A DNA stretch of 54,914 bases, counting the filler, from Asterionella formosa (lineage: Eukaryota): NCBI GenBank assembly GCA_002256025.1. It is 4 parts of 4 records of this genome, joined end to end, with 100 filler letters (N's around TTAATTAATTAA, not from the genome) between each part and the next. Parts side by side here need not be neighbours in the genome. Positions count along the whole stretch, not along the records: positions 13,761 to 27,417 come from NKIB01006509.1; 3 more parts are not named here. The stretch is one strand, 5' to 3'. The notes beneath the pieces are model-generated. The model had not been told where the DNA came from. It ran no database searches and worked only from the letters and a program-made list of their open reading frames with translations. The position numbers were made by a program, and so were the translations under genes. Below are positions 13,661 to 54,666 of this stretch, in pieces. Position 1 is the first letter of the stretch, and each line of letters begins with the position of its first letter.

Positions 13661-13760
13661 NNNNNNNNNNNNNNNNNNNNNNNNNNNNNNNNNNNNNNNN
13701 NNNNTTAATTAATTAANNNNNNNNNNNNNNNNNNNNNNNNNNNNNNNNNNNNNNNNNNNN
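13661..13760. other. Scaffolding linker: N run with TTAATTAATTAA at its centre (also 27418-27517 and 41171-41270)
   Basis: An identical 100-bp construct occurs three times, so true gap sizes are unknown. Plain N gaps occur at 51004-51878 and 53217-53614. Confidence 0.97.
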
Positions 13761-14033
13761 AACAACAACAACAACAACACCATGGCTTTCTTGTAATGAT
13801 CAAAGAACAATGCACATGCAGGTTTCTCTAAGAATAAACATTTTGCGCTTATTAAATACAAGTATTAACACATGTATTATTAACACATCAGGAGCAAAAG
13901 AGTACTGGAGCACCACCAGTAATATTACTTACTGAGTCAGTCTACCGGTATAGGCAGAGAACGCACGGCGAAAACCTCCCCTCATGCATCACCATATGAC
14001 ACTCAAATCCCTACAAAATAAAATCAATCCACC

Positions 14034-15481
14034 ATGACACGCATTATCCGCCTTGTGCTTGTTGTCGCTGCTGCCGATGCTTTTGGTGTTCTCTCTTACC
14101 ACCGCCGCTATGCCACCTCTCTTACCCGCGGCAAAATTTTCTTAAGCGAAGGATCTTCTTCAGAATCTGGAGATCTACCAAAGCTAAATAAAGAACAGAT
14201 GGAACAGAAGGTTGGCAATCTTGTGGCTGACGATGAATGGATGGGCTTGACTATGGAGCTGACTGAACTTGTTAGATGCGCTATTATCGAAGACGTGAAG
14301 AAAAATGCCAGAGAATTTACCGGGAAGGAAGAGTACAAGGTTGGTAAGTTCATGTTGCGGTCACTTGAGGCTACTTGTACAGTATTTTGAGGTAGTGTAT
14401 GATTTCAGAAGAAACTTATTTTTTTAATATTTGTCTTTTGTATCATCTTCTCGCAGGTGATTTTTCTAAGGAACTTGATTCCCGGGTTAAGGAACAAGTC
14501 GCCATGTTGCGTGGTAAAGAAGAATGTAAGGTTGTTGAATGAGTCGCATCCTCTTTATTTACTGTATTGTGCTCACTTTGGCTGGGAATCAATTTTAGAT
14601 GAGCTTGGAGACTTGACTGTGGCTCTCGATACAATGAGTAAAGAATTCACCAAGCAGTTGACTGGAAAAGACGACTGTAAGTGTTTTGCGCAGCTAACTG
14701 CTCTTGTTGCTACTTGAACATAAGTTTACAATGATACTTTATTTCATTTCCACAGACGAACCTGGAGACCTTTCAAAGGAGATCGATAGCCGCGTCAAGG
14801 CTGCCGTTGTTGAATTTTGCGGGAAGACAGATGGAGAATGTAAGTGTGTTGGCGCTTTGAAAATAAGCAATGGGTTGTTATTACTGATGTGTTCGTCGTT
14901 TTAAACAGATGAGTTTGGTGACCTGAGCAAAGAAATCGATCGGCGCATCAAAGAGCGAGTTGCAGGATTTACTGGAAAGGGAGAATGTAAGTGTAATGTT
15001 GGCTTTTTTGTTTTTCAGTTTCTTATTGCTCAAATTATATCCATCAGACGAGTTCGGCGACATCACGAAGGCAATTGAAAACCAACGACGAGCCTGGATG
15101 AGTTCGTTTTTGGGAGAGGAAACAGCAGCAGCCTACCAATTTGGTATGTAGATATTGCAATAAAGGGTTCTTTGTTCTGCAATTTCTGATTTGTCTCAAC
15201 CAATGTACATTAAATTTTCTTATGCGGTCATAGGCGACGTGACAAAACAAGCCCTAAAGAATTTGACAGGGAAAGATGAATATGAATTTGGTAAGTTCAT
15301 CTGAAAGGCTACAGCTATTAAATATACAGCGATCCCATGTCGTTTTTCTCGGTTATCATATCTGAAGTCCACAAAGTGTCATCTAATTGTCATCTTCTAT
15401 TGTTGAATTCAACCAGGGGATGTCACCAAGAAAATCATGGGAAATTTGTTCGGAAAGAGAAAGAGAGGCGGAGACAACTAG
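14034..15481 (+). CDS. 8-exon gene for a plastid-targeted repeat protein (GKxxYEFGDxSK repeats), 278 aa, function unknown
   Basis: Exons 14034-14343, 14457-14525, 14599-14676, 14756-14839, 14909-14986, 15048-15143, 15234-15290, 15417-15481. All introns are GT..AG. The spliced frame is open to TAG (837 nt). The signal peptide ends ADA-F. Confidence 0.88.
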
Positions 15482-15579
15482 CTTTCGATATTGCAAGTTC
15501 GAATAAAATCAAACTTTTAATTGTATGATGCTACAGAATTGCCATAAGAAAATAGAATAGATTGGAATCCACAACAATT

Positions 15580-16704
15580 TCACAAATTCTCAGGTCTACT
15601 TTCAGAAAAAGCTCTCAAGTTGGCTCCTGCGAACCGTGTGGTCCTTAAACCATCGACGATGACTGCCCCAATCTTTTTGTAGAATGTTATGGCTGGAAAG
15701 TTCCAGTCCAAAGCTTGCCACACAAACCCAGTACAAGCCAATCGCTTACAGACACTTGCTAGCGCATACATGACCATCTCCCCCCCTCCGCGACCTCGAT
15801 GGGATACTTCAAAGAAGAGATCTTCCAAATATAAGAAGCGCCCTTTATCGAAATCATAACCAAAGTAGAAAAATCCCATTCCATGGTACGTCTTTGTTTC
15901 AGTATCTTGCAACAATAGGCAATGGAAAAGTGGGTGGTCAGTTTGGTAGCCATCTATACGATAGTGTTCCTTGTTGACATGCACCGACTCTGGTTCTTTT
16001 TCATACAATGCAAGGCCAGCTACTTGGACTTCTATTTCGTCGAGTTCTTCTTCAGTTGCTCGATGCAACTTGAGCCCCCTACTTTCCAATGAAGTGTTGG
16101 TCAATACCAAAAATTCGTCAATGGCTCTAACAGCTGCTTCTAGAGTGAAATCTTCGGAAGTCGATAACGTAGGAGCCAGGGTCTCTTTTGTGGCAAGGAA
16201 GGTATCAATTGCTTCTGCATCCATACGTAGTGTCATCCAACCTTCCAGAGTTTCAGCTTTCAATTCCTTGTAGTAGGGTGCCTTGTTATCATAATGCTGC
16301 CACACCAATCTGTGGCAATCTAGTTTGATCGCAACATCAGCTAAAGTATACATCAAGGATGTTTCGAGGGATGTGTCATCCACGTGGATGTGGTTGATGT
16401 AAATGTATCGAGAATCCCAGGTAGAATAGGCCAAATAGAAGATTGCTGCAGCGCATACATTCCCATCTTTTCCCTCGGACAAAATTCCATGGTAAAAGTC
16501 TTGGAAATCCCGCGACGTGTCTTGCAGCGAAACGTCGGTAGCTGAAAGGAAAGTTAAGAGACTCGGAAGGTCTCTCGTTTCCACTGGGCGAAGTGCCAGC
16601 CTTTCTTTATGCTCCCAGCGATTTGTTGTTGCTTGGCAGGCTGCGAGTGTGGATTCCTTGATTGTCTGGAGGCTGAGGACCTTTTCAGGTAGTGGGAGGA
16701 CCAT
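15580..16704 (-). CDS. Tandem-GNAT protein, diamine/spermidine-spermine N-acetyltransferase-like
   Basis: C-terminal GNAT: LALYEKEP...YLEDLFFEVSHRGRGGG...WQALDWNFPAITFYKKIGA. N-terminal degenerate copy: FYLAYSTWDSRYIYINHI...RLVWQ. The ORF track start is TTG; the first ATG is 16704, and an upstream exon is possible. Confidence 0.85.
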   Translation of the reverse strand: MVLPLPEKVLSLQTIKESTLAACQATTNRWEHKERLALRPVETRDLPSLLTFLSATDVSLQDTSRDFQDFYHGILSEGKDGNVCAAAIFYLAYSTWDSRYIYINHIHVDDTSLETSLMYTLADVAIKLDCHRLVWQHYDNKAPYYKELKAETLEGWMTLRMDAEAIDTFLATKETLAPTLSTSEDFTLEAAVRAIDEFLVLTNTSLESRGLKLHRATEEELDEIEVQVAGLALYEKEPESVHVNKEHYRIDGYQTDHPLFHCLLLQDTETKTYHGMGFFYFGYDFDKGRFLYLEDLFFEVSHRGRGGGEMVMYALASVCKRLACTGFVWQALDWNFPAITFYKKIGAVIVDGLRTTRFAGANLRAFSESRPENL

Positions 16705-17301
16705 TGTGTCTTCCAACTGAACCAACTAAAGCAGGCACAACCGATATCTCAGTGAATTTGGTGACAATACAAACACCGTGTACCCGGTATATTCTAAAGA
16801 TGATCTAGGCAAATTTAGGCCGATTTACGACAGTGACAGGTAGAGGCAGGAATAAAGTAGGAAGCACCAAGAACAAAATGTTCAGTCGACCGATTGAGAA
16901 TCTATCATATGATGTGTATAGGTGTGGTATGATACCACACCAATGGATTTGTGGTAAAGACGGTTTATGCTATAAGGAAAACACAGCTAAAATTCTCATT
17001 TACCGCAGCTTGCACAAATCTGTGGAGAGATTATTGTAATAATCATGGATAGAAAGATTTGTCGTAACTGGTACTGGTACCAGGTACCAGGTACCTGGCA
17101 TCCACTCCGACTACCGGTAATCTGTCTGCACAAGGAATTTCTTTGTGCTGACACTTGACCATCACTGAGCAACAACATCGGCATTCATTAGTACGGTATG
17201 CAGCCATAATTCCATAGCGATATCGAAAGGAAAGAATTGTTTGATTTTACCCTGCTCGCACTTCTTTTAAAAAGAAAATCTAATACAGAAGATATCTGGA
17301 A

Positions 17302-18228
17302 ATGGATGAACCAAACGAAGCAAAGAGAAAACGGCGGAAAAGAAAGAAATCGACAAGTGTTGACGCGGTGGAATTAAATCCTACTACAAGCATCAGAACC
17401 GGAACTCAATTACAAAATCCGGCAAAGCGAAGAAAGCAATCCGACAATTCGATTCCCTGGAATACAAAAGCCACTAGCGGAAAGCCTTCCCATCCATTCA
17501 AAGTCGACGACACTGACCACTGTGAAACACCCATAGGCGCGTATCAAGACATAATTGCCTTGATAGATCAGATTGCAATTAATCTTGGAAAGACTCGACA
17601 AGCCGTCTTAATCTATGATCCCTACTATTGCGATGGAGGTGTCAGGATGAAGCTTGCGTCACTTGGCTGTAAGAATGTCATCAATGAAAATCAGGATTTT
17701 TATGCAAACATTGCGAACAACAAGATCCCAGACTATGATCTGCTTATAACGAATCCTCCATACTCTGGTGAACACATGGAGAAGCTACTTAATTTTGCTG
17801 CTGGTTCACAGAAGCCTTATCTTTTGCTATTGCCTCACTTTGTTTACACTAAGGAATACTACCGGCGTTCCAACATACAGCAAGGGATTTTCTACTTGGT
17901 CCCTAAGTCACGTTATTCGTATCTACCTCCTCAGTGGGTTGCTGCCAATAGTGGCAGTGCTGCTTTGGCAAAGGGAAAGACACAGACAGCACCATTTCCC
18001 TCCTTTTGGTATTGCTATACAGGAGAGCAAGTGCCGCATGCATGGCTGGAATCTATATTTGGTAAGAGTGGTATTTACGATCGCAATCGTAAACTCCAAT
18101 ATGCTAGTTCCACGGCCCATATTCCACGTGAAAGCAAGGGTGAATTTGATCTTTCCAAGAAGCGACCAAACCCAAAAGCGCGGAAGCGAGCCATGGCTGC
18201 AAAGCAGCGGGGTCAAATGGCGACATGA
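17302..18228 (+). CDS. Putative amino-(N6-adenine)-methyltransferase-fold protein
   Basis: 308-aa ORF with DHCETP, a motif I-like IYDPYYCDGG, and motif IV LLITNPPYS. Basic NLS-like clusters occur at both ends. Confidence 0.7.
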   Translation: MDEPNEAKRKRRKRKKSTSVDAVELNPTTSIRTGTQLQNPAKRRKQSDNSIPWNTKATSGKPSHPFKVDDTDHCETPIGAYQDIIALIDQIAINLGKTRQAVLIYDPYYCDGGVRMKLASLGCKNVINENQDFYANIANNKIPDYDLLITNPPYSGEHMEKLLNFAAGSQKPYLLLLPHFVYTKEYYRRSNIQQGIFYLVPKSRYSYLPPQWVAANSGSAALAKGKTQTAPFPSFWYCYTGEQVPHAWLESIFGKSGIYDRNRKLQYASSTAHIPRESKGEFDLSKKRPNPKARKRAMAAKQRGQMAT

Positions 18229-18850
18229 ACAATAGATATTGGAATTATAATCTGTAAAATATATGCCGGTACTAGATTTGCGTTCATGTCCTTTCCAAGC
18301 TTGCTCGCCCAGGCATCCAAGTTGATTCTACCAGATAGGTACCTGGTACTCTCGCAAGAACCAACCAGGTGCTCCTGTGGTATATACAACAAATGAATCA
18401 CTGGGTAATAAAATGTTAAAGGAAAAAAGTTGTGTACAGAATGCATAGATAGTGTATAAAAATAGGAAACATACAACTACAAAATGTATCATTGGTAAAT
18501 ACCAAAATAAAAAACCTGCATCGCATTCAAACAAAACCATTTCATGCAGAATCAAATTCAATGGATTTAGTCAGTATATCACTTAATGATGTAGTGATAT
18601 ATATAAGAGCAATTGTGTCTTAAATGAAGGAAATAAAAAATAGATGAATGCCAGAAAGGTCCAGAAGATTACTACAAGATTCTAAGGAGCAAACAAAATG
18701 GAGAATGAACATGCGAGGTTATGGAGTTGCTCTTTTTATGTTTCAAAATCCTACTGCTGGGCTGTGTAGTTAAATAAAATCCAACTATAGTTATCCAGCA
18801 TGTCAAAGAAACTATAAGTTCAATACATATAGAACCATTAACAACCAGTG

Positions 18851-20527
18851 CTAATATATAGTACTGTTAAAAAAGATCATCCAGAAAAGTGCTAGCCAAC
18901 TCAATTGCTCCTTCCCCCCAGCTGCTAGCCTATCAGGTAAAATTCCCGCTCTTTCCAGAGCCGCCTTCCCAATGTGAGGTATATTATAATTGTTGTCGCC
19001 ATTAACCAAAATAATCTCTTCCAAGCAACCCTGTAATGTTAAGAAAGAACAATTTAATTTGGTTGGTTCAAAAAAATCGAATGCTGCCTGCACTGCCTCT
19101 ATCAAACCGTCGATGTTGTTGCGGGCTTCTGCCACAGAGACCCATTGACCTGACTGTAATGCCCTAAATAAGATAGATCGTTGATATTCAAATCCGGACT
19201 GTTCGCGGGTTGCTTAGTCAATCGAATATCCCATTCTTCATCTGTTGCAGCTGCTACAAAGGGAACAAAATCGGAACCAAAATGTGTTGAAGCATTGTCA
19301 TGCTGTAGATTTATTCTTTTGTTTCCATCAGGCCACTTCGCTTTTATCATAGGTAAAACATTATCAACAATCATGTCAGCATATGACGGTTTTGTCACTG
19401 GGAGTGACTTTGTTTCCATTGTCCCTGCCGGTCGATAAATTGAACTTTTTTGCGCTGCTACTTGGTGCACAAATAGCCAAATCCCAATTTTACCATCAAA
19501 CGTACACACTTTTTCGTCGTCAAAACGCGGATGTGTCACAGCAGAAAGGAACATGACCTTTTCGATATTCTCCTTATGTTTTGTCCGCCTTGTGGGAGCC
19601 TCTTCTCCATGAGCCAGATATATTTTCAACTTTCCTTCTAAAACAAAGAACCACTTTTCATCTATAGGAACCTGGTAGCCATCATAGTAACCAAACAGTC
19701 CCGGATCAAAATCAATATCAGGGGAAGGATGGTGTTCTTGATCTGGATGGTTCAATTGTAAATGATTCACACAATACATAAAACGACTTATCTTACCCTC
19801 CTCCGAAAGCATCGGCTTGACTGAACTTGTGTGCAGTCGTATTACATTCTCTCTGTTATCCTTTGCAATCCAAAGAACTGTTGACTTGGGAAGGGCAAGA
19901 GCAGCTGCTAATTTACGATATGCAGTACGCTTGCGATATGGAATACCTCTAATCGCTGCAATTATTTCTTACGTGGGTATTTGCAAGTATACCCAGTCAA
20001 TAATTTGCGGGAAAGCGATGCAAACACGTAAGTATCATCATTAGAATAGGATTCGAGCGCGCGGTTCCAAACACGTTGTATAGTTGTTTTATCAAATTTG
20101 AACCGACCTGCCAAAAATGTAACGGTTCCACGCACTAAAATGAGCCGACCATCCATTTCGTCCCCTCCATCAGGTCCTTTTTGGAGGTTCCGTAAACCAT
20201 AATCCAACACGAGTTGACACTCTTCTGGTGTTAGATCCTTTCTCATGTGCTTGTTGAGAAGAGGTGGTGGCAAGAAAAAAGGGGGGTCAGTCATCTGCAT
20301 TTCGCTCGAGATGAGCAAAAGTGGAAGTCAAAAAAGCCGAAAAACGTTCTTTTTTTCAGGCGTAGTTGCCAATTTTCATCTTTCTTTATATAATATATAT
20401 ATGGATCGGTAGCTTACTAGAGCAAGCTGCACCATAGGGCTATTGAGCCGGAGAAAATCGTAGGAGTCAAAATGGCCCGCCCGGATAAATTTGAATTATC
20501 GATGCAACTGTTACTAGACAGAGGGAG
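18851..20527 (-). mobile_element. Tc1/mariner DD39D (plant-mariner-like) transposon with a frameshifted transposase
   Basis: HTH region at 20318-19962. Catalytic IDEKWF, LQHDNA and QPANSPDLNIND, with 39 residues between the second and third Asp. C-terminal GDNNYNIPHIGK. Stowaway-type TIR CTCCCTCTGTCT ends at 20527, followed by TA. The opposite TIR was not found. Confidence 0.88.
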
Positions 20528-20591
20528 TACCAGGTACACAGCCTGGTACTGCTAAGCATCACTAAATTCCTGCTGGCAGCCGGTATGTAAA

Positions 20592-23500
20592 TTAGTAGTA
20601 CCTGGTAGTAAAGTGCTGCTCCAGCAGTATGGTGCTGCCGTCATTGAAAGGGCAGAAGCGATTTTGCGCTACTGTCGGTAATACACCGGCATTGCTCCTA
20701 GTAGCTACTAGTACACAAATGACCAGTATACTGACTCTCCCTCTCAGCCGAAGATACCAACTAAAAAAAGATTGAGGAGTGAATGAGACAAATATTATTG
20801 GTATCACAGGGGGAATGCATAGTAGGATAGTAAACACAACCACCCCATGACCAGCCAACTTCCGAATGGACTCGTCGAAAACAGTGCGCACAAGTCCTTT
20901 GGTGAAGATGTCTGCCTTTTGTTCGGTAGTGGCAATCTTGATGATTTTAATGTGTCCATTTGCAACATGGGAACGGAAGAAATGGTACTTGACAGCAATG
21001 TGTTTAGACCGGGGTGTCATGCAAGGTGAGGAGGCAAGAATGAGAGCCCCATTGTTATCCTCAAAAACCTTAGAATAGGTTCGAATTTCAAAAATTGGAC
21101 TATGTCCCATAGAAATTGCCATTTCCTGAACAAGGGCACGAATAGGAATAAGCTCACGCATGGAATGGGACAATGCAATGTACTCAGCTTCCAAAGTGGA
21201 CAAGGCAACTTCACTTTGAAGTTTTGAAGTCCAGGTAAGAGGACAGCCACCAATGGTGATAAGGTATCTGGTACGCGACTTGACACTAAGAGGGTTTTGG
21301 TCATCTTCATGTAGCCAAAGGCCAGCAAAATCCGCATCAACATAACAATCAACCCCAAGATCCCCAGATGGAGAAAGAATGAGACATTTGTGATGGGTGC
21401 GAATGAGGTATCGTCCAATGGCTTTAATTGCAAGTGCATGGGTTTGCTTGGGAGCATGAGAGAATCGAGCACACTGGTGAACCGCAAAGGCAATATCAGG
21501 GCAAGAGTTGTTACTCAAGTAAAGAAGCATACCTATGACAGATCGATCGATGCAAACAAATTTCAGAAATAATACCGGTACACGTAGTCGTGGAAAACAA
21601 TGGACATATAGTGCATTGAGTATTTTCGAATTATGTATATGCGAGTATGATCATCTCAACCATATCGATCATCAGACCCCAGCGATTCTTGTGTGGTAGG
21701 AGTCCATGTTGGGTTGGCAGAGTCGAGACCTAAGGTAGAGATAATGCGGTCAGTGAGACCAGTTTGCGTCAAGGTGAAGGTGTCATTTTTGCGAGAGACT
21801 TGGATGCCCAAGAAAGTGGCAAGTTCACTTTCTTCAGTGAGGTCTGTATCGACTTTAAGATCAGTCACAAGTGCATCAAGAACATTAGAGTCTGGTCCGG
21901 CCATTATAATGTCATCCACATAGCTAGCAAACAAGGACAGTAGTTTTGCAATAAAAAAGACATGGATCGAGGGAACTTTGAGTGAAACCGCGTGTTTCAC
22001 GTTTTGCTTTCAGATAGTCAAACCAGAGACGAGGGGCTTGCACTAGGCCATAGAGACTCTTGGTGAGCTTCAGACAGACATATTAGTCAGAATCACTCTG
22101 ATAGCCACGAGGGAGATGGACATAAATTGGTTCATCGAGGAGGGCAGCTTGAACAAAGGCATTGCTGAAATCAATACACCGAGTGTGGAGCTTGAAAAAC
22201 AAGGTGAAGTAAATCAGAAGATGTACAGTAGACCACATCACAACAGGAGCAAAGGTGTTTTCCATTGGTTCTTGGAGGTCACCACAAACACACCAACGAG
22301 CCTTTAGTGATTTGATACGTCCGTCTGGGTGATGTTTACGGCGAAGAGTCCAAGTGCCAGGAAAGGTTTTGGTTGTTGCTGAAGATTTTGAGACAATTTC
22401 CCAAGTTCCTTGTTTGATGAGCGAGTGAAGTGATTTCCTTGTGCATGGACTCCCTCCATTCAAGGGCGTCAACATCACGCATCATGGCTTCATCGTATCG
22501 AAGAGTGTCAGGGTCACTGGAGGAAGCAACAAAAGCGGCCAAAGCGACATCATTGAGGTGACCATCAGTGCAGGTGGCGAGCGGGTCTTCAATCAGCAAA
22601 CTTGGCAACGAGGTGGTTGAATTCAAGTTCATCGCCATATCGTGTGCCTGCAACACCTTTTGTACTTCGCTGAGAGTGACGAGGGCGTACGGAAGCAGGA
22701 GCAGGATTGGGTTGTTGGTTCTTTGGTGGAGGTGTCTCCCTCAGAGCCAGGGGAGGTAAACCTGAAGGCTCCTCCCTCAGAGATGTCAAGACCAAAGGTG
22801 GCTCCCTCAGAGCTGGGGTAAATGGAACATCAATAGAAAGATGACGCTCCCTCTGAGGCAATGGGGACAATGACTGATGGGACGGTGAAAGCGGAGGTCT
22901 GGGAGAAGTGGGTGGAATAGAGAGAGCAGAGACTGGGACTTGAGCATCCTGGGCACCTCTAATGAGTGAGTTTTGCCTGTTATGTTGCTCTTGAGCAATA
23001 AAATCTTCATTCCATTCATCACCCAACAGAGGAGGTTCATTGTCATCAAAGAAATATTGGAAATGACTGTGCCCAAAGAGGTTGTCCCAAATTGGACCAT
23101 TTAAGTCTGGAGCTCGATCAGGATCTGAAATGACAGTGGAGAACCAAGAGTCAAATACACAGTGGAACAACTGAGGGCTGATGTATCCAGTGTTCAGATT
23201 AAGCACCAGTGGGGCAGTGGAGGCGTGCTTCTTTGAGAGTCCCAAGAAAACTGCACGACGCGAACGAGGTTTCCTTCTAGGCAGTTTCTTTCCATCCTGC
23301 ATAGTAGAATCCAGGACATACACGGGACTTCCCCATACTTGGAGATCATTGCATTTGTGGGTGGGCCATTTAGTGCCTGAGAAAATCTCAAAAGGTGCCA
23401 GGCCATTTTTCCTGTTAGGGAGATGATGAATGTACACAGCATAGTCAACAGCCATAGGCCAGAGGGTACTATCAGCAGTGTCACACCAGCGGATGGCAGC

Positions 23501-26500
23501 ATGCAGCATCATAGTTCACGCCATAGACATAATGGTTTGAATATTCCGCTCTGCAACACCATTATGATGATGGGCACCTACTCCAGCAAAGTGACTAACT
23601 TGTTTGAAAGCTGCCAATTCTGCAACATATTCCTTATCAGTAAAAGCCTTTCCATTGTCTGAAAGGTAAGATTGAACAATAACTCCAGAGTCCCAAGCAG
23701 CAGCCTCAAATTTGTGTTTTGAAACAAAAGTTTCATGAGAGGTCAGAGAGACTTGATGTTCCACATGAACAAAACCGGAAGCATGGTCGACAAACAGACA
23801 TCCTCCTGAGTACATTTGCTCTTGAACTGTTTTTCCTTTTGAATCATAGTGTCGTCCCTTAGTGTGACAAACAAAGTGATCGACTGAGACTTGCTGCCCT
23901 GGTAGGAGGTCTCTTTTCTTAAGTGCACCACAGCTTGATGGAACGGGCGTTGAAACACTACTGGATGTTGGTCGACGTTTTGCCTTTCCAAATTGGTAGG
24001 AGGCACAGCGAGGTAGGACACAGTTGGATGCTGAACGGTGCAGATTCTTTTGCCCTTCACTTGTTGCAAGGGCTCCTGATCTCAACAGTAATTGTATTGA
24101 TTTAAAGTGTAGATGGCCAAGTCGAAAGTGCCAACGCATTAGTTCCTTCTGAGCTTCGGTTAGATTTTGATTGTTTGAATCGGTAACACAGAGGTTAAGC
24201 TCTTGAACACAGTGATTGACATCCACTTCATTGTATCCATAGCTGATAGGAAGGTTATTGTTGGTTGAGAAAGGGACAACAATGTCTGGTACTCCACCTC
24301 CACAGATACGAATATGGTCAGACTCAACTCGACCGTAGGCTGGAGTTTAGATCCAAAAAAACCTTGGATATAAGATTGCCAACTGAGGAGGCGTTGGTGA
24401 GCTCCAGGAGTATCTTCTTCAGAGAGCTCAAGAAAATGGAGAGTACCATCAACTGCTGGAACCATCCATCTGACCTTGCCTTGACCTTCAATTGATAATC
24501 CTGCTGCTAGTCCTTTCAGTGTGACAGGTGTGATCAAGGGGGTTATCCCATCAACAAAGTCCTGGATATTGTGACTGACTGTACTGGATGCTCCTGTGTC
24601 CCAAATAAAGGAGAACTGTGCTACTGAGGAGAGCCCAAGATTGGACTTTTAGTGGCACCAAGGCAACAGAATGGACTTGGTGGGACTGGATTACTGGCAG
24701 CAATTGTTGGTGTATAGAGAAGACTCCAAGCCTGACAATGTTTAACATTTGATCTGAATAGGTATTGTATACCTGCAATCTGGGATGAGTAAGGTATATG
24801 GGGAGGCTTGAGAACAATGGACTGTGGAACAGGGTCAGTGGTTGAGATAAACATGGGAGGCTCTCTGATACTGTCAGACCTGCATTGTCGAAGCTGAAGT
24901 GGATATGAGCGAGAGACAATTGACACGAGACTGAGAGGTTGCTGGAGTTACTTCTGATGTCGATAACAACGGCGATGTGTAGACAAGTGCAGCAGTTTCA
25001 CAGGAGGGTGGGCATGAGCATACTGCATGAAGTGAAGCCAGAGCACTTGAGAGAAGACAACCAACCAGAAGCACACACAAGGTCCCAGGGAAGCAAGGAC
25101 AACATGGTTGTGATTCAGAAGACTGATAAGAGGGAGGAACTCAAAGGAAAGGGTCAATCTCTGACAAAGTATCCAAAGAAGAAATGAAAGTGGATTGGGC
25201 CCCCCCCCTCCCCCCGACCCCCAAGTCAAAATTGAGTTGCACAAATTCCAAATCCATCATTGACACCAGCAAGGTTTGCACTTATAACAGGTGCTTCAAT
25301 GGCAGGAACAGGTGTGGGGGCAGCAGGAGAAGCAGGAACAACCGCATTTGGAGGTTTTCCATGAGTAGATCCAAGGTGCGTTGAGGTCCAGAGTCCCAGG
25401 CCTTTGCAACACTTGTTACAGAAGTTGAATGAATTATCACCAACAACTTTGACAGTTGGCTCTCCAGGCTTGGGTGCTACTTCACGCCAGTTGTGCTTCT
25501 TAGGATCTGTGGGCTTGGGAGGAGGAACACCAGGCGCATCTCCACCAGGTTTAGCAGCAATGGCTGCTTGAACAAGGGCATTGAATGATGCTTGGTCCAT
25601 TCCAGCATAAAAAAGGGAAGGGGCCTGTTGGATGGTGTCCTTTACAGTGCTGGCAGGGGGACCAATCACCATTGTCCAAGAGAGAGCGGTAGGCTTCTTC
25701 AGCAAGATCAAGGATAGCTGTGTAGTGAAAACCCTTTTTGATCATGAACTTCTTGGCTGAATCTTTGGATAGGTAGGCTGAGTCTGAGAGAGCAGAGTCA
25801 AGGTCAAGACGCTTGGGATGCCAAATGTCACGAAAACTCTCAACTGAAACCTGACAGAGTGCCTTAATGATTGCCAACACTAGCAACCATTCAAAATGAT
25901 GGGCATTTTTATGTTCACAGCAAATTCTGCGGATCTTGTTTGCATAGAGTGAGACGCTTTCACCAGCTTTCTTAATTGGAGACAGCTGCTTGAGTTCATC
26001 CTTCTTTCGGTTGAATCGCTCAACAGATCCACTGCTAATCAGACGAAGGATGCGCATTCAGGTAACAGCAGCAGAGTCACCTGGTTCCTGACTGAGGTCA
26101 AGTTCCTTGAGGAGTGAGGGGTCAAGTGTGAATTCAAGATACAAGCAAGCAGTTGTGTCATTGTCCTGGTCATAAGAATCAAATTTGTTCTTGTAGTAGT
26201 CAGATTCATCAAGGACATGGGAAAGGGTGACCTGCTCAAATTCCTTGATGACATGGACCATCTTGGTGTCATCACTGAGACTCTTGACATACATGATGGA
26301 TTCCATACCTGTGAGTTCAAGGTGTGCCAAAACATTAACACCAAAGGAGTATAGGTCTAGGTCCTTGCCATCCTTTTTAAACAGAATGAGAGGTGCAGCT
26401 GTGCGGTAGTTCCAGTTCCTGGACTGATCACTGGACTTAGTTGGACGAGAGCAGTTGGGAGAACGCTTGATTGCTTTGACATTGGTCAGTCCAGTGCAGT

Positions 26501-26630
26501 CAATGTAAGGTCGTTGAACTCCTCCAGTCCATGCAACGATTTCGGTTGGACAAATGGTGAGTCCTCCCATAATAGGTTTGTCAATGGTCATGGAAGAAGT
26601 GGGAGGATCAGGAAGAATATTGCCAGACAT
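20592..26630 (-). pseudogene. Copia gag-pol, multiply frameshifted
   Basis: Gag runs from ATG 26630 with a knuckle FCNKC..LWTSTH. Integrase: WHFRLGH, VSVDHF, SDNG, NGVAERNIQT. RT: FAPVV, IDFSNAFVQA, YVDD. RNase H: YVDADFAG, FEDNNGA, ADIFTKGL. Confidence 0.9.
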
Positions 26631-26914
26631 GAGGAAGGATTGTTATGAAGAAGATTTCCTTGAGTACTACAAAAGAAAAATGACTGATATGGGGTGATCT
26701 TGTTGTAGAGGTTGCTATTATTTCACAGAAAATAAGCGCAATTGGGCTTGATAACCAGTCAGTATATCACTTGATGATGTAGTGATATATATAAGAGCGA
26801 TTGTGTCTTAAATGAAGGAAATAAAAAAATGATGATTACTAGAAAGGTCCAGAAGATTACAGATTGTAGAAGAATCCAAGGTTGTGTAGAACTTAAGTGA
26901 CAAACTGTGTGGGA

Positions 26915-27040
26915 AGGTCAAGAAGGGTGGATCTTGCTTGTAGGGATCCAACAAGGTGGTGGATCTTGTAAGGATCCAAGCAAGGTGGTGGATCTTGTAA
27001 GATCCAAGCAAGGTGGTGGATCTTGTAGGGATCCAAGGTG
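26915..27040. repeat. ~29-bp tandem repeat (about 4 copies) inside the copia 5' LTR
   Basis: Repeating unit aaggtggtggatcttgta(a/g)ggatccaa(gc). Confidence 0.85.
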
Positions 27041-27517
27041 AAAGAAAGGAATGAATGTAAATTTGGTTGAAAAAACTGATGTTTTCAATTATATGAGCTT
27101 AATTTTAGTTGGCAAAATGAGGAAGGTGAGGAAGTGCCAGAAGCAACTAATGAAGTGCTGGCACCATGGACTGCTGAGTAGTGAATCTACAGACTCCTAA
27201 GGGAAAGGTAGTGAAATGCCAGTAGCAAGATCAGAGGTGCTGGCAGTAAGCTGTGTATGAATGTACAGCCTGCTCCCATAGACCTGCCTACTTAGGATCA
27301 GCAGAATTGTGCTGGTGCTGTTATACCAGCAGTGCTACTATGCATAAAACCTGGTACACAGTCTGGTAGCATCACTAAATAAATTCCCGCCGGAAGTTTC
27401 ATCATGGTACCTGCCTGNNNNNNNNNNNNNNNNNNNNNNNNNNNNNNNNNNNNNNNNNNNNTTAATTAATTAANNNNNNNNNNNNNNNNNNNNNNNNNNN
27501 NNNNNNNNNNNNNNNNN

Positions 27518-41024: not shown

Positions 41025-41277
41025 GGTCCTCTTATTGTGATTGGGCGATGCAAAGGGAACTAGGCTACTAATAGACAGAAGGATGATGATCCCATTAGGA
41101 TGTTGGCGGCGACTGCGAGGACTATCATGGGGAAGATGACTGCCGGTAAATACCGGGACACGCGTAGAATNNNNNNNNNNNNNNNNNNNNNNNNNNNNNN
41201 NNNNNNNNNNNNNNTTAATTAATTAANNNNNNNNNNNNNNNNNNNNNNNNNNNNNNNNNNNNNNNNNNNNCCGCGGG

Positions 41278-49571: not shown

Positions 49572-50654
49572 TTATGAACTTTGATGTTTTGATGAATTCC
49601 TTATTCTACTCTTTTTGGCGACTATAAGTTTTTCGTTTGCAATCATTTCAACTACCCTTGACGCCGCCACAAATCCATACGTGCCAGTGACAAAACATGC
49701 TGTCCCTAGTACCCCATCACATCGTCGCAGTGCGGACGAGGAGTCACTAGAACCTTCTGGAAGCCCTTTTTGTTCCTCAATAGAAAATACTGCCTCAATA
49801 CCCCATTTCTTCGGCTTTGTTCCCTTGAGCTGTGACATGACTTCCCCCTCAGAAAAGCCATACAATTGCCGCAAATTCTTCCGGCAGGCGCTTAGGAGCT
49901 TATCTCCAGTAGCTCTGGTCAAGTCTTCACATACAATCTTGGTGGGGTCCATTCTTCCAGCTGATCCTCCGCACGTGACAACAGGAATATTATTCTCAAC
50001 GCATCCTGCAATTAGTGCAGTCTTGGAGCTTTGGCCATCAATCGCGTCCACACATGCCGTCAGTTCAGGTAAAAGACCATTAAGGATATCATTGACATTC
50101 TCAGTGGATACAAAGTCATGAATGTTAGTTATCTTACATTCCGGGTTGATGTCAAGAAGCCGTCGCCTCATTTCGTCAATCTTCATACGTCCAATGGTAC
50201 TAGATGTGGCATGCAGTTGCCTATTGGTATTGGAGATACAGATATCATCCAGGTCGACAAGAACGATATTTCCAATACCACTTCGACAAAGTGCTTCCGC
50301 AGCCCAAGAGCCGACGCCACCAAGCCCAATCACTGCTACTGTCGCGTGAGTCAATCGTTCAAGAATTTGCAGATGAGGAGCGAGATCCCCCGTTGCAGCA
50401 GCGATTCCGTCAAAGGTTTCATAGAGTCGACCAACTCCTTGAAATCGAAGTTGTCTTTGAGTGGCAGCTATTGTTTCATTCATAAACACATCGGATTCCA
50501 TATTATGATTAGTCGACTGGCGTAGATGTATGTTGGCATTCAATATCAGCTGGCGTCGTAGTGGTGATGGTGAATGCCAAAACGTCGGCATTATTGTAAA
50601 GGAGCCTGAACATACCACAACCACTGCTGCAAGTAGCAATTGCAGATAAACCAT
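49572..50654 (-). CDS. tcdA: tRNA threonylcarbamoyladenosine dehydratase (TcdA/CsdL, ThiF family), probably plastid-targeted
   Basis: VIGLGGVGSWAAEALCRSGIG, DLDDICISNTNRQ, DAID..SKTALI, GGSAGRMDPT, VFSIE, GTACFVTGTYGF. N-terminal signal peptide ends SGS-F. Confidence 0.9.
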   Translation of the reverse strand: MVYLQLLLAAVVVVCSGSFTIMPTFWHSPSPLRRQLILNANIHLRQSTNHNMESDVFMNETIAATQRQLRFQGVGRLYETFDGIAAATGDLAPHLQILERLTHATVAVIGLGGVGSWAAEALCRSGIGNIVLVDLDDICISNTNRQLHATSSTIGRMKIDEMRRRLLDINPECKITNIHDFVSTENVNDILNGLLPELTACVDAIDGQSSKTALIAGCVENNIPVVTCGGSAGRMDPTKIVCEDLTRATGDKLLSACRKNLRQLYGFSEGEVMSQLKGTKPKKWGIEAVFSIEEQKGLPEGSSDSSSALRRCDGVLGTACFVTGTYGFVAASRVVEMIANEKLIVAKKSRIRNSSKHQSS

Positions 50655-52369
50655 CGTCAATCGTCGTCAAGTTTGCATATTAGCAAGATAAATAAGCAAG
50701 CACGAGCAAAGCATAATGAAGGCCACTCGAGATTCTGCCTGTGGCTAATCGCAATTACTAGTCTGAGTACCGGTAGGTAGGGACCAGGGTACTGATGTAT
50801 AATGTATGTAGGATCATGATTGCCAGTCCATCACAATGTACCGGTAATTGTTCCCTCCGTATACCGATGTAAGAATGTGTCTGTTAGGCTGTTGATGTCG
50901 ACAGGTGTCCGAAGGCTAGATGTAGTCTGGCTGAGGAATGTCTAAATGGAGATAGACAATATTTAGTATGTAGCATCATATATGCAAACGAGTGGCGAGA
51001 GGANNNNNNNNNNNNNNNNNNNNNNNNNNNNNNNNNNNNNNNNNNNNNNNNNNNNNNNNNNNNNNNNNNNNNNNNNNNNNNNNNNNNNNNNNNNNNNNNN
51101 NNNNNNNNNNNNNNNNNNNNNNNNNNNNNNNNNNNNNNNNNNNNNNNNNNNNNNNNNNNNNNNNNNNNNNNNNNNNNNNNNNNNNNNNNNNNNNNNNNNN
51201 NNNNNNNNNNNNNNNNNNNNNNNNNNNNNNNNNNNNNNNNNNNNNNNNNNNNNNNNNNNNNNNNNNNNNNNNNNNNNNNNNNNNNNNNNNNNNNNNNNNN
51301 NNNNNNNNNNNNNNNNNNNNNNNNNNNNNNNNNNNNNNNNNNNNNNNNNNNNNNNNNNNNNNNNNNNNNNNNNNNNNNNNNNNNNNNNNNNNNNNNNNNN
51401 NNNNNNNNNNNNNNNNNNNNNNNNNNNNNNNNNNNNNNNNNNNNNNNNNNNNNNNNNNNNNNNNNNNNNNNNNNNNNNNNNNNNNNNNNNNNNNNNNNNN
51501 NNNNNNNNNNNNNNNNNNNNNNNNNNNNNNNNNNNNNNNNNNNNNNNNNNNNNNNNNNNNNNNNNNNNNNNNNNNNNNNNNNNNNNNNNNNNNNNNNNNN
51601 NNNNNNNNNNNNNNNNNNNNNNNNNNNNNNNNNNNNNNNNNNNNNNNNNNNNNNNNNNNNNNNNNNNNNNNNNNNNNNNNNNNNNNNNNNNNNNNNNNNN
51701 NNNNNNNNNNNNNNNNNNNNNNNNNNNNNNNNNNNNNNNNNNNNNNNNNNNNNNNNNNNNNNNNNNNNNNNNNNNNNNNNNNNNNNNNNNNNNNNNNNNN
51801 NNNNNNNNNNNNNNNNNNNNNNNNNNNNNNNNNNNNNNNNNNNNNNNNNNNNNNNNNNNNNNNNNNNNNNNNNNNNNNGAATCAATATCGAAAATTTTAT
51901 GCTCATCATCGTATATCATTTAATGCGGAGACTTCTAAACTTACCCTAATCCATGATCTTTCTTGGTTTTTTGGTCGATTGACCATTTCAGGCAATCTAT
52001 CAAGATGAACAAATTGCTCCAAATCTCAAACCAATTACATAGCTGACTAGCTAGCCTATATGCTCGGGAAGGAGCCAGAACTCTCAGAATTTACTTTTAC
52101 GTAGCTAAGGCTGATAGAAAAACGTGTTATTCTGCGTTCCATGGCTGGTGGGTCAGAGCATTACAAAAATATTCTTAATGGGTCATGGCAGTTTTTTACT
52201 TGTACCTGTAGACACGATATGTGCTTCCCTAGTTTTGTTAGCATAGGTGAGTCACCAACCACCTTTCATGAAAGGTGATCATCTGAGCCACAGCATTCGA
52301 GGAAACTCCGACTGTATAGGAAGGCTGCAAAAGCTGCTTGTGGGGGGGGAGCAAGACCGTGCAGGATGG

Positions 52370-52485
52370 TGTAAGGAGTGTGGGAGTCGAACCCAACAAA
52401 ATTGCTTCTCAAAAAATTGTGGGAATCGAACCTTACAACCTCAGATCAAAGGTATCGTGCTAAACTAATAAGCCATTCCCTCCTC
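52370..52485 (-). other. tRNA-like/SINE-head remnant with a duplicated B box
   Basis: GAATGGCTTATTAG...GAGGTTGTAAGGTTCGATTCCC, plus a second GGGTTCGACTCCC about 38 bp downstream. No intact cloverleaf. Confidence 0.45.
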
Positions 52486-53802
52486 AAAGCTATATACTTA
52501 GCTACAGCTGGTTGCATCGAAATAATATAATAGTAGCCCACGTAGTTCTGGTAAAAAATATTATCCTTATCCCTATAGGTGTACTAAAAACATCACTCCA
52601 TTTTGTTTGTTTCAATTGCCTCACCATGTTGCTCAAGATCTCCGTCGTGTCTTGCGCAAAAGTGAATCCCCAAAGGCTTTTAGAACTTTTCGTTATATCA
52701 TTAGTGGAATTTTTTTGGGGAATCACTTTTCACCATATGTTCAAAAATTATAGCAATAGCAGTTATGGCCACCATCAGTGACTCTGCCATACATGGTGCT
52801 TGGTTGTCGGTTGCTCAATTCAGGGAATATCTTCATGAAAACTACACTCATGGCTTTGACATAAAATTCATTACAAATAGATTGATAAGTTAGTTAAATT
52901 ACTAGGTGTTTCCAAACCAATCTTTGGAACCAATCGAGGTCAAGATTTATAGAGGTAAGAATGTAATGGTATTCCAACCTGAGTATCAAGAGAAGGGCAA
53001 CAGTTGACAAAGATTATATCTATGTTACAAGAAATTCAGTATTAGTGGTTACTAAGCTCCTTATTTATGTGAATTCATTTGAATGGGAGGAGAAATGTGT
53101 TCCATTGAAGAAGCAGCTGAGAAGTGGATTTGTGATGATCAAAATTTTCGTCATTGTTACATGGCTGTGACATCACCTTGTAGTACTTGAACTTGATTAG
53201 ATAACGAAGTTGCTATNNNNNNNNNNNNNNNNNNNNNNNNNNNNNNNNNNNNNNNNNNNNNNNNNNNNNNNNNNNNNNNNNNNNNNNNNNNNNNNNNNNN
53301 NNNNNNNNNNNNNNNNNNNNNNNNNNNNNNNNNNNNNNNNNNNNNNNNNNNNNNNNNNNNNNNNNNNNNNNNNNNNNNNNNNNNNNNNNNNNNNNNNNNN
53401 NNNNNNNNNNNNNNNNNNNNNNNNNNNNNNNNNNNNNNNNNNNNNNNNNNNNNNNNNNNNNNNNNNNNNNNNNNNNNNNNNNNNNNNNNNNNNNNNNNNN
53501 NNNNNNNNNNNNNNNNNNNNNNNNNNNNNNNNNNNNNNNNNNNNNNNNNNNNNNNNNNNNNNNNNNNNNNNNNNNNNNNNNNNNNNNNNNNNNNNNNNNN
53601 NNNNNNNNNNNNNNGCTGTCCCTCCTGAGACCACCCATACCTATAGCAACAGCAACATCCAGCAACAAGCAAAAACATATTTGGACTCTCCTGAAGCCAA
53701 GAAACTGCGCATCCCCTCCCCATTTGAATTTAGATAATCAAATTGAAATCCTCAAGCAAATAGTATGACATACTGGTTACAAAAAATCAGACAAGTTTGA
53801 TG

Positions 53803-54666
53803 TCAAGCAAAATTTATCATTTTTGATGTATTTACAAGATCCTCTAAAGTTGTTTCTCCATTCCTTCTAACTGATTCTGCAAACACTATCAGCTCTTCAT
53901 GTGTCAAATAGAGAAAGTGTTTGCCATTATCAACAAACACCCCAGTTATCCTGCAATCCTTGACCAATGCTCGGATTTTAGCAGTGATAGTAGAACATGG
54001 AATTCGAAACTGTTCAGAGAGATCGTCGATGTTAATGTACTTGTTTGATTTCAAGTACTCTGACAGGTCCACAACACTCATCGAGTCGTCCCCAGAGGAC
54101 AGAAAGATCTTCCAGGCTTCGTACTCATTCTGCTCTTGCAATTCTTTTGCCTCCATTCGTAGCTTCCGCCTCTCTTCAATTCTCTTTGCTTCTAGTTTAT
54201 CTCGCTCTTTCTTTTCTAACTGCGCTATTTGTTGCGCTTGGCGTTGTTGGTCGCGCCGTTGGTCCTCACACAGCTTGCGCTCTTGTCGTTCTGTTGCCTT
54301 TGCAGCCTTGTCGCGTTCTTTTCTCGACAAACGCCGCATCTCGCCAGGGACGTTATTCTCATTTTGGTCCACACCTGGCTCGTCGCCGCCAATCCTACGT
54401 TGACGCTTCATAACATTTTTGGCTCTTGCCCTCCGCTGCGCACGGTTGAGAGTGGCGATATCGGCGTGGTCCAATTTAGCATCATAGTCCATCTCATCGT
54501 TTCCTCGCGTTTCGAATTCCTCGCGAGTCTGAAGTCGGCGCACAATGATAGTGTACATTATGATTGTCAACATGCCAAAGCCCAGGATGGAGGCAGCGAG
54601 AAGCGCCTCGTCAGAGAAGCCAACTCCAATGTCAGCAGCATTCCCGAAGCGACCATTTGATTTCAT
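53803..54666 (-). CDS. DDRGK1: DDRGK domain-containing protein 1 (UFBP1)-like
   Basis: N-terminal TM anchor, a long E/R/K helix ending EYEAWK..F, and a winged-helix region with ITGVFVDNGKHFLYLTHEEL (canonical LTGVxDDRGKFIYI). First ATG at 54666. Confidence 0.82.
   Translation of the reverse strand: MKSNGRFGNAADIGVGFSDEALLAASILGFGMLTIIMYTIIVRRLQTREEFETRGNDEMDYDAKLDHADIATLNRAQRRARAKNVMKRQRRIGGDEPGVDQNENNVPGEMRRLSRKERDKAAKATERQERKLCEDQRRDQQRQAQQIAQLEKKERDKLEAKRIEERRKLRMEAKELQEQNEYEAWKIFLSSGDDSMSVVDLSEYLKSNKYINIDDLSEQFRIPCSTITAKIRALVKDCRITGVFVDNGKHFLYLTHEELIVFAESVRRNGETTLEDLVNTSKMINFA

Follow-up and report, generated by a model that had tools for sequence, protein, structure and literature searches.

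How did a small diatom gene come to carry one intron in each of its repeats? The gene in question lies on the plus strand at positions 14034-15481 of the window (the whole 54,914-nucleotide (nt) stretch of Asterionella formosa DNA, assembly GCA_002256025.1, which was analysed here), in the part taken from NKIB01006509.1, and encodes a putative plastid protein made of repeats. Diatoms are intron-poor, so seven introns per 837 coding bases are unusual. We favour, with moderate confidence, later gain of introns into repeats which already existed, including spread within the gene, over exon duplication, because the introns fall into two position classes, close relatives are intronless or differently interrupted, intron sites in the family form clusters which cannot be ancestral, and intron gain is ongoing in the family. 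We infer the direction of change, i.e. gain instead of loss, from comparison of sequences.

The reading frame of 837 nt (278 codons, giving a precursor of 278 amino acids (aa)) runs over eight exons from the start ATG at 14034 to the stop TAG at 15479-15481, and each of the seven introns is GT..AG and phase 1. The protein contains exactly seven GKxxYxxGD motifs with one intron inside each, so that no motif is without its intron; the split codons are, in order, G|GT, T|AT, T|AC, T|AT, T|AC, G|GC and G|GG, four introns cutting a Tyr codon and three a Gly codon. The parts of the gene are as follows, X1, X2, X4 and X8 being sequencing runs described below.

14034-14343, + strand: exon 1, 310 nt, up to the first base of Gly104; putative signal peptide (approximately residues 1-16, ending ADA, then Phe17), transit-peptide-like stretch, long N-terminal helix (VGNLVADDEW...) and loop motif 1
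14344-14456, + strand: intron 1, 113 nt, GTAAGT..CAG, phase 1, splits Gly104 (G|GT); RNA joint in X1, X2 and X8
14457-14525, + strand: exon 2, 69 nt; helix 2 and loop 2, ending on base 1 of the Tyr127 codon
14526-14598, + strand: intron 2, 73 nt, GTAAGG..TAG, phase 1, splits Tyr127 (T|AT); spliced alignment and RNA
14599-14676, + strand: exon 3, 78 nt; helix 3 and loop 3, ending on base 1 of the Tyr153 codon
14677-14755, + strand: intron 3, 79 nt, GTAAGT..CAG, phase 1, splits Tyr153 (T|AC); spliced alignment and RNA
14756-14839, + strand: exon 4, 84 nt; helix 4 and loop 4, ending on base 1 of the Tyr181 codon
14840-14908, + strand: intron 4, 69 nt, GTAAGT..CAG, phase 1, splits Tyr181 (T|AT); spliced alignment and RNA
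14909-14986, + strand: exon 5, 78 nt; helix 5 and loop 5, ending on base 1 of the Tyr207 codon
14987-15047, + strand: intron 5, 61 nt, GTAAGT..CAG, phase 1, splits Tyr207 (T|AC); joint also on a short X4 contig
15048-15143, + strand: exon 6, 96 nt; helix 6 and loop 6, which is longer, ending on base 1 of the Gly239 codon
15144-15233, + strand: intron 6, 90 nt, GTATGT..TAG, phase 1, splits Gly239 (G|GC); spliced alignment and RNA
15234-15290, + strand: exon 7, 57 nt; short helix 7 and loop 7, ending on base 1 of the Gly258 codon
15291-15416, + strand: intron 7, 126 nt, GTAAGT..CAG, phase 1, splits Gly258 (G|GG); spliced alignment and RNA
15417-15481, + strand: exon 8, coding part, 65 nt including TAG; last helix and basic tail KRKRGG

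Phase 1 in 7/7 introns has a probability of 0.0005 if phases are equally likely, and a chance coincidence of motifs and introns is excluded because each of the seven YxxG motifs holds one intron at one of only two codon positions. As an independent check of the gene model we used a protein-guided spliced aligner with the transcript-derived orthologue P0007 as guide, which returned the identical seven introns, base for base, and no split codon showed an indel when the spliced protein was aligned to 11 orthologues. Sequence, spliced alignment and RNA therefore agree with the first-pass annotation, which had described seven phase-1 introns in 4 Tyr and 3 Gly codons, with internal exons of 69, 78, 84, 78, 96 and 57 nt. 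It had also stated, correctly, that the open reading frame (ORF) track shows the gene only as a fragment (14034-14390, 118 aa), and its remark that neighbouring genes have few introns agrees on a loose check with flanking genes which are long uninterrupted ORFs (381 aa and 308 aa).

Part of the window stretch is contained in 13 runs, 12 of which are recorded as RNA, including lake and other freshwater metatranscriptomes, and four of the runs were examined. All eight exons were found joined on one contig each in X1 and X2 (study P1) and in X8 (study P5), with gaps of 113, 73, 79, 69, 61, 90 and 126 nt, making all seven joints exact; RNA junctions thus fall at the predicted sites in all three runs. 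X4 (study P2) yielded a 60-nt contig with the fifth joint only, plus an unspliced contig over 13975-14986, and in P0151, a 97.7%-identical fragment, intron 1 is spliced out and intron 2 is retained or read through. The unspliced contig and P0151 suggest a second strain, and either pre-mRNA or DNA carry-over. Within its RNA library, the unspliced contig has 15 differences and an 8-base deletion in intron 1. The gene is real and expressed, and all introns are removed in the full-length transcripts seen.

The repeats themselves are conserved one by one. Each aligns one-to-one with its own counterpart in every species compared (the window protein and 11 orthologues), and no length change of at least 6 residues, gained or lost, was found in the aligned part of 80 related loci, which together indicate that the repeats predate the split of the diatom orders. 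The haptophyte clade, as we call the group in which Emiliania clusters in the gene tree with the loci L054, L056 and L069 (Shimodaira-Hasegawa approximate likelihood ratio test (SH-aLRT) 99), has one additional short repeat. Judged from these alignments, the seven repeats are old and common to haptophytes, and their number is fixed among the diatoms sampled. Repeat number does vary in a paralogous branch, as indicated by the unit count of P0101, a long relative (676 aa) with a signal-peptide-like start, at least 10 tandem helix-loop units and a hydrophobic C-terminal part; two of its units are identical stretches of approximately 44 residues.

To compare the introns we mapped them in the 80 metagenome loci, giving each site as residue/phase in the numbering of the window protein. 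Introns called by the aligner in the divergent presequence (ahead of model residue 60) and at the extra haptophyte repeat (L054, L056/57 and L072) proved false; sites before residue 60 were discarded, and haptophyte loci were remapped with their own protein derived from complementary DNA (cDNA). Contigs resembling cDNA (approximately 1-1.4 kb) were excluded as evidence for missing introns, and poly-A tails were found at no locus, hence contigs could not be sorted into cDNA and DNA by tail. Uninterrupted ORFs lying between other ORFs on both strands were found at L015 (on a 16.9-kb contig), L020, L026/L030 and L036/L037. These are four intronless genomic lineages, and L015 and L026 cluster with the window gene (SH-aLRT 89). 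Other lineages have one to six introns, mostly at other sites:

L061/62: D66/1, V103/0
L063: M74/2
L064: E116/0
L065: E116/0, R221/2
L066/67: E116/0, P155/1, E206/0
L070: V103/0, E116/0, P155/1
L068: I84/1, F209/0
L071: I85/1, E126/0, F238/0, F257/0
L072: Y101/1, L129/1, F183/0, F238/0, F257/0
L069, L073, L074: Y153/1
L075: V103/0, A135/0, I190/0, E231/0
L076/77: L129/0, R165/2
L078: Q117/1, E126/1, F257/0
L079/80: V103/0, G130/1, G149/1, V170/1, V198/1, L246/0
L031: D211/1
L051: D259/1

Including those of the window, there are 37 distinct sites (21 phase 1, 13 phase 0 and 3 phase 2). Six of them fall within 13 nt at junction 2 (E126/0, E126/1, Y127/1, L129/0, L129/1 and G130/1), and since these cannot coexist in one ancestor there must have been many gains or shifts, whatever the ancestral state. 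Exact sharing with the window at the DNA level was found for Tyr153 phase 1 only, in the haptophyte-clade loci L069, L073 and L074. In the comparison of intron positions in orthologues which the first-pass annotation had proposed, Tyr153/1 recurred in haptophyte loci and the other six sites were not matched exactly in the DNA.

Further sites come from read-through fragments, i.e. database ORFs which run from an exon into an intron, whose first residues past the exon give site and phase when read by eye (for example, T|GT yields Cys where Tyr is expected). P0001, which has the same presequence motif as the window protein and 66% identity to it over exon 1, has introns 1 and 2 at the window positions and an exon 2 of 69 nt. 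The site of intron 1 (G104/1) is also indicated by P0037, Y127/1 by P0153, P0183 and P0185, Y153/1 by P0019, P0144, P0148 and P0167 (so that Y153/1 is probably present in the diatom fragment P0019 too), and the site of intron 7 (G258/1) by P0108. On this reading at least introns 1 and 2 of the window gene date back far enough for the species of P0001 to have them too. P0005, which also has the window's presequence motif, is uninterrupted across junctions 1 and 2. The same source as the read-through ORFs contains P0002, P0003 and P0006, close relatives which likewise carry that presequence motif and are full-length proteins on contigs of 77, 11 and 25 kb.

Copied introns were found elsewhere in the family. 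In L072, a haptophyte-clade locus whose splicing is confirmed by its cDNA-like counterpart L056 (1018/1050 aligned columns identical), introns 1 (2114-2182, 69 nt) and 2 (2267-2337, 71 nt) are approximately 85% alike by eye and lie at different motif offsets, inside Tyr101 and Leu129, suggesting that an intron was copied within the gene. Introns 2 (2063-2165) and 4 (2680-2767) of L075 have a homologous core (z = 26.7) and each ends in a copy of the 6 or 11 bases preceding its own donor site, which we read as an introner-like signature with target-site duplication; among 48 introns scanned, target-site duplication was found in 2, both of them in L075. Near-identical intron copies are thus present in L075 and L072 and not in the window gene. 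The upstream exons of the window introns end in TG (three), AT (three) or CT (one) and in AG in 0/7 cases, compared with 29/41 introns of other family members where the exon ends in AG, and the (A/C)AG|G context was found at 0/7 window sites. With no mutual likeness, no direct repeats and no AG, the window introns are not recent copies, recognisable introners or canonical proto-splice insertions. A TA-type target-site duplication at the Tyr codon was rejected by eye, as G and not A follows the exon's T, and the idea that the introns (61-126 nt) are leftover copies of the repeats, the exons (57-96 nt) being alike in size, was rejected for lack of similarity to the coding repeats (z -1.4 to 1.6).

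Taking a loop as G..G plus Asp, which covers 68/219 residues (31%) of the region, 24/37 sites fall in loops (P = 2.4e-5 vs a uniform spread). In 24 uninterrupted coding sequences the density of AG|G is 0.0354 in loops vs 0.0214 in helices (1.65x), and loops contain 42% of AG|G sites; the excess of loop introns against that share is still significant (P = 0.0042). A loop bias of introns is likely, and part of it is explained by the ordinary availability of splice context. That the loop-coding G-K-x-x-Y-x-F-G-D segment is a true hot spot of intron gain in diatoms and haptophytes is a serious possibility, although we lean slightly against it. Were it so, introns would have entered repeatedly at nearly every codon boundary and phase and by more than one route, such as transposon-like introners with target-site duplications (L075) and intron copying within a gene (L072), and in the window lineage all seven loops would have become occupied at non-canonical T|A and G|G sites.

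Ancestral exon duplication would have involved tandem copying of one exon-plus-intron unit, making the introns as old as the repeats, with the window lineage keeping the original state and other lineages having lost or shifted their introns. We consider this unlikely, although it would account for one repeat per exon, for internal exons which are all symmetric (1-1) and 57-96 nt long, and for equivalent intron positions within the repeats; it also gains from the presence of Tyr153 phase 1 in haptophyte-clade loci, from the fragments suggesting G104, Y127 and G258 phase 1 elsewhere, and from the fact that every intron could be removed in one cDNA-mediated loss. It agrees poorly with two position classes, Tyr and Gly, 9 nt apart, with the lack of any similarity in intron or exon DNA beyond what the protein requires, and with four intronless genomic lineages, two of which (L015 and L026) group with the window gene. 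The 37 sites include clusters 1-4 nt apart which are incompatible within one ancestor, P0005 shares the window's presequence motif without having introns 1 and 2, and the introns of orthologues do not sit at one homologous position, only Tyr153 being found exactly elsewhere. As between the two origins first proposed, exon duplication or repeated gain at a proto-splice site, duplication is therefore disfavoured and later gain favoured, but no canonical proto-splice site is involved (AG in 0/7). A special case of gain is spread within the gene, in which one founder intron per class (Tyr, Gly) would have been copied to the equivalent place in other repeats. The copying could have gone through ectopic gene conversion, with the conserved loop-coding segments as partners, or through reverse splicing of an intron into a similar junction elsewhere in the same transcript. 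In the Tyr class, the junctions left after splicing are nearly uniform (GAAT|ATGAG twice, GAAT|ACGAG and GACT|ACGAA), reuse of one motif position is seen elsewhere (Phe phase 0 three times in L072 and twice in L071), and L072 holds its two look-alike introns in a single gene. However, those two lie at differing offsets (Tyr101 and Leu129), which is unexpected from simple conversion, the window introns are without mutual similarity and no mechanism was directly observed, so that we regard spread as possible but rather doubtful.

Selection could also have favoured introns in a highly transcribed gene, where they would raise expression or mRNA export and the loops would tolerate them. The spliced contigs have word depths of 376-727, but contig depth is a poor measure of expression, and intronless orthologues likewise give many cDNA-like contigs; loops account for 31% of the length and 42% of the AG|G sites, but such a site is used by 0/7 window introns, and selection of this kind seems improbable. 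Lower still we place regulated modular splicing, in which the symmetric exons would exist to permit the skipping of helix-loop units and so give shorter isoforms. The six internal exons are indeed all multiples of 3 with phase 1 on either side, so a single-exon skip preserves the frame, as the first-pass annotation had held. Its further suggestion that skipping could change repeat number holds in part: a perfect motif would be re-formed if exon 3, 4, 5 or 7 were skipped, because the intron class is equal on both sides, but skipping exon 2 or 6 would leave a hybrid loop, judging by sequence. The idea of modular splicing itself found no support, since every exon is present in three full-length RNA contigs from two studies and the repeats are orthologous one-to-one across diatoms, each conserved between species. 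The sole variants were the intron retention in P0151 and the unspliced contig in X4, and repeat number is constant over the 80 related loci, bar the one extra repeat in the haptophyte clade. No exon-skipped transcripts were found among the contigs of the four runs, but assembled contigs drop rare isoforms and cannot reveal them, so minor exon skipping may occur.

Several points weigh against intron gain and against a loop hot spot. A single recombination with cDNA can erase all introns, so intronless relatives are no proof of gain, and that P0002, P0003 and P0006 probably come from intronless genes is a weak spot, being deduced from how P0001 and P0005 were called. Tyr153 phase 1 is common to the haptophyte loci L069, L073 and L074 and probably to P0019, fragments indicate G104, Y127 and G258 phase 1 elsewhere, and some window introns could be old. 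Of the inner branches of the gene tree, 25/51 are open, and such a weak tree does not permit ancestral-state reconstruction. The window introns themselves bear no sign of recent origin: in pairwise comparison 20/21 pairs have z ≤ 2.2 and one has z = 3.8, there is no similarity between introns and coding repeats (z -1.4 to 1.6), and flanking direct repeats or target-site duplications were found at 0/7. When the six window-only sites are left out, 18/31 sites remain in loops, which is significant vs a uniform spread (P = 0.0017) but gives only P = 0.052 vs the AG|G share. Of the 115 fragments whose non-homologous tail has 4 residues or more, 74 break in loops (P = 1.8e-11 vs 34% and P = 1.1e-6 vs 42%), a figure which may be too high, since local alignments are apt to end at conserved loop residues.

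Under later intron gain, the history of the gene would run as follows. This nuclear diatom gene encodes a precursor with a putative signal peptide, a putative Phe-initiated transit peptide for plastid import and one long predicted helix, followed by seven further amphipathic helices (five of approximately 18 residues and two of approximately 11). Seven conserved loops, G-K-(D/E)-x-Y-x-(F/L)-G, link the helices, each new helix opening with Asp. The repeats are old and the introns not uniformly so, and the window lineage would have acquired one phase-1 intron per loop, in the Tyr or Gly codon, by lineage-specific gain or by spread between repeats. The window gene would then be the extreme of a family-wide tendency for introns to lie in the loop-coding segment, and its architecture would not be a relic of exon-plus-intron duplication. 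The gene description given by the first-pass annotation was correct and its evolutionary interpretation half right.

We also examined the protein family to which the window protein belongs. The seven exon peptides had no Pfam match at E ≤ 1, and five full-length orthologues all stayed below the gathering cut-off, the best match being DUF2291 at 21.4 bits vs a cut-off of 22.5. An EF-hand-like loop, which fits at 4 key positions by eye, was rejected, no EF-hand being among the Pfam matches, and the sole PDB sequence match (E = 0.055, to a designed protein) was likewise rejected. A Foldseek search with the structural model described below gave nothing at E ≤ 0.001, with designed helical repeats and apoA-IV only at E > 1; the best VIA-align match (Z 5.3) covered the single long helix only (residues 60-110), so that the repeat part was barely tested by it; the best feature score in the protein atlas was 0.75, to an unnamed cluster, which gave no lead; and no paper was found via motif strings or the five accession numbers of named members. 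Relatives are numerous: exon 1 has 57 among longer proteins, the cluster representatives at E ≤ 0.001 number 946 (181 of them at E ≤ 1e-30), and a profile search gave 619 proteins at E ≤ 1e-5. The named organisms among the 120 matches listed are all diatoms, belonging to Proboscia, Ditylum, Helicotheca, Cylindrotheca, Eucampia, Epithemia, Craspedostauros, Amphora, Nitzschia and Pseudo-nitzschia. In Epithemia, P0245 and P0249 have adjacent locus tags on one 238.6-kb contig, indicating a tandem duplicate. A search from a divergent member rich in guanine and cytosine (GC) added Emiliania huxleyi (58% identity) and Thalassiosirales, and identity between diatom and haptophyte members is approximately 50-58%. 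This appears to be an uncharacterised family, strongly conserved in diatoms and haptophytes, and its product is probably abundant.

A hydrophobic N-terminus followed by an aligned Phe was found in 12/12 aligned sequences; in the window protein it ends ADA before Phe17, the cleavage site being read by eye. An ASAFAP-type motif is described as a mark of diatom plastid-targeted proteins in PMC4329603, and the match to it, together with the putative signal peptide and Phe in all 12 sequences, is consistent with the earlier reading of the gene product as a plastid protein. The protein would be imported into the plastid and would be located in the stroma rather than in the lumen. An AlphaFold2 model of the orthologue P0007, built with 43 aligned sequences, has a mean predicted local distance difference test (pLDDT) score of 76.7 and a predicted template modelling (pTM) score of 0.47, with pLDDT of approximately 90 over residues 120-240. 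It predicts eight helices and seven loops of 5-9 residues: residues 1-58 are disordered, and a helix at 66-108 is followed by seven helices of 11-19 residues. The loops of the model are the G-K-x-x-Y-x-F-G segments and the next helix opens with Asp, which places every intron in a predicted loop, so that each internal exon codes for one helix and the greater part of a loop. The mature protein is acidic and hydrophilic (isoelectric point 4.9, grand average of hydropathy -0.78) and the helices are moderately amphipathic (hydrophobic moment 0.35-0.56).

Our best guess at function, a tentative one based on the model, is that the protein could serve as a soluble stromal helical-repeat scaffold specific to plastids of the diatom and haptophyte type, with a coat on membrane or lipid surfaces and a role in the pyrenoid being less likely. 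Like alpha-helical repeat proteins and arrays of the apolipoprotein or late embryogenesis abundant (LEA) type, it would have amphipathic helices joined by short conserved turns and is acidic and hydrophilic; unlike these, it has no significant fold or sequence match, and its loop motif is not in Pfam. The pyrenoid Rubisco linkers EPYC1 and PYCO1 are disordered and fast-evolving. The window protein resembles them as a putative algal-plastid repeat protein with multiple equivalent units, but it differs, when set against what is generally known of the linkers, in being predicted to be helical (pLDDT of approximately 90 over residues 120-240) and in keeping approximately 50-58% identity between diatoms and haptophytes. 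Its high predicted order tends to argue against a linker of this kind.

Genes with one module per exon and symmetric phase 1-1 exons are familiar from the exon-shuffling modules of animal extracellular proteins. The window gene is like these in having one structural unit per exon, phase-1 flanks and the possibility of gaining or losing units in frame. Unlike them, it belongs to a unicellular alga and has as its units the single helices of a compact repeat protein, its repeats predate the present distribution of the introns (orthologues elsewhere range from intronless to six introns), and there is no sign of unit shuffling in its family. Parallel intron gain, intron sliding and proto-splice sites are covered in a background review (PMC3488318); as in the parallel gain and sliding treated there, separate lineages of this family have introns at identical or almost identical positions, but the clusters of sites are denser here than is usually reported for sliding, with up to six within 13 nt. 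The proto-splice model is matched by the 29/41 introns of other members which follow AG and by loops 1.65x richer in AG|G, but not by the seven introns of the window, which follow TG, AT or CT instead of (A/C)AG. Introners are described in PMC9860276 and PMC12130899 as introns made by transposons, with target-site duplication as their signature. The homologous pair in L075, with direct repeats of 6 and 11 nt of which the repeat supplies the 3' AG, and the pair in L072, approximately 85% alike, are similar to these, unlike the window introns, which are short (61-126 nt), mutually dissimilar when compared within the gene and without direct repeats.

Repeat-per-exon architecture and recurrent intron gain were already known, and are found here in a conserved family of putative plastid proteins which lacks annotation. 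Its ancient repeats are met with none, few or seven introns, the 37 sites are crowded in loops and two lineages have freshly copied introns, making the family a compact system for testing models of intron origin, namely insertion at favoured sites, intron sliding, spread by gene conversion or by reverse splicing, introners and the loss of all introns at once via cDNA. If the loop hot spot is true, one small gene would provide a natural series for studying what governs the landing place of new introns and their spread from repeat to repeat. The family is also of interest in its own right, as a conserved and apparently plastid-located family of diatoms and haptophytes for which we found no annotation, solved fold or paper.

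The window consists of four chunks of approximately 13.7 kb joined by spacers (a 12-base motif with stops in every frame, between two runs of 44 N) at 13661-13760, 27418-27517 and 41171-41270. The repeat gene lies in the second chunk, and only 13761-27417 is known to be contiguous with it, so that genes in the other chunks need not be its neighbours. The flanking genes are as follows.

15580-16725, - strand: GNAT-type acetyltransferase ORF, 381 aa (Pfam PF00583, E = 1.1e-11)
17302-18228: uninterrupted ORF, 308 aa

The GNAT ORF is convergent with the repeat gene and ends approximately 100 nt from its stop codon, and since RNA contigs of 2.0-2.6 kb extend beyond 15600 they may bridge the two genes. 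Further along the same chunk, a row of minus-strand ORFs at approximately 21656-26630, with a GAG-pre-integrase domain at 23516-24226 (PF13976, E = 3.5e-8), is probably a decayed long terminal repeat (LTR) retrotransposon. In the last chunk, GC is 0.25-0.31 over 50001-54000 vs 0.39-0.50 in the rest of the window, and long runs of N are found at 51004-51878 and 53217-53614.

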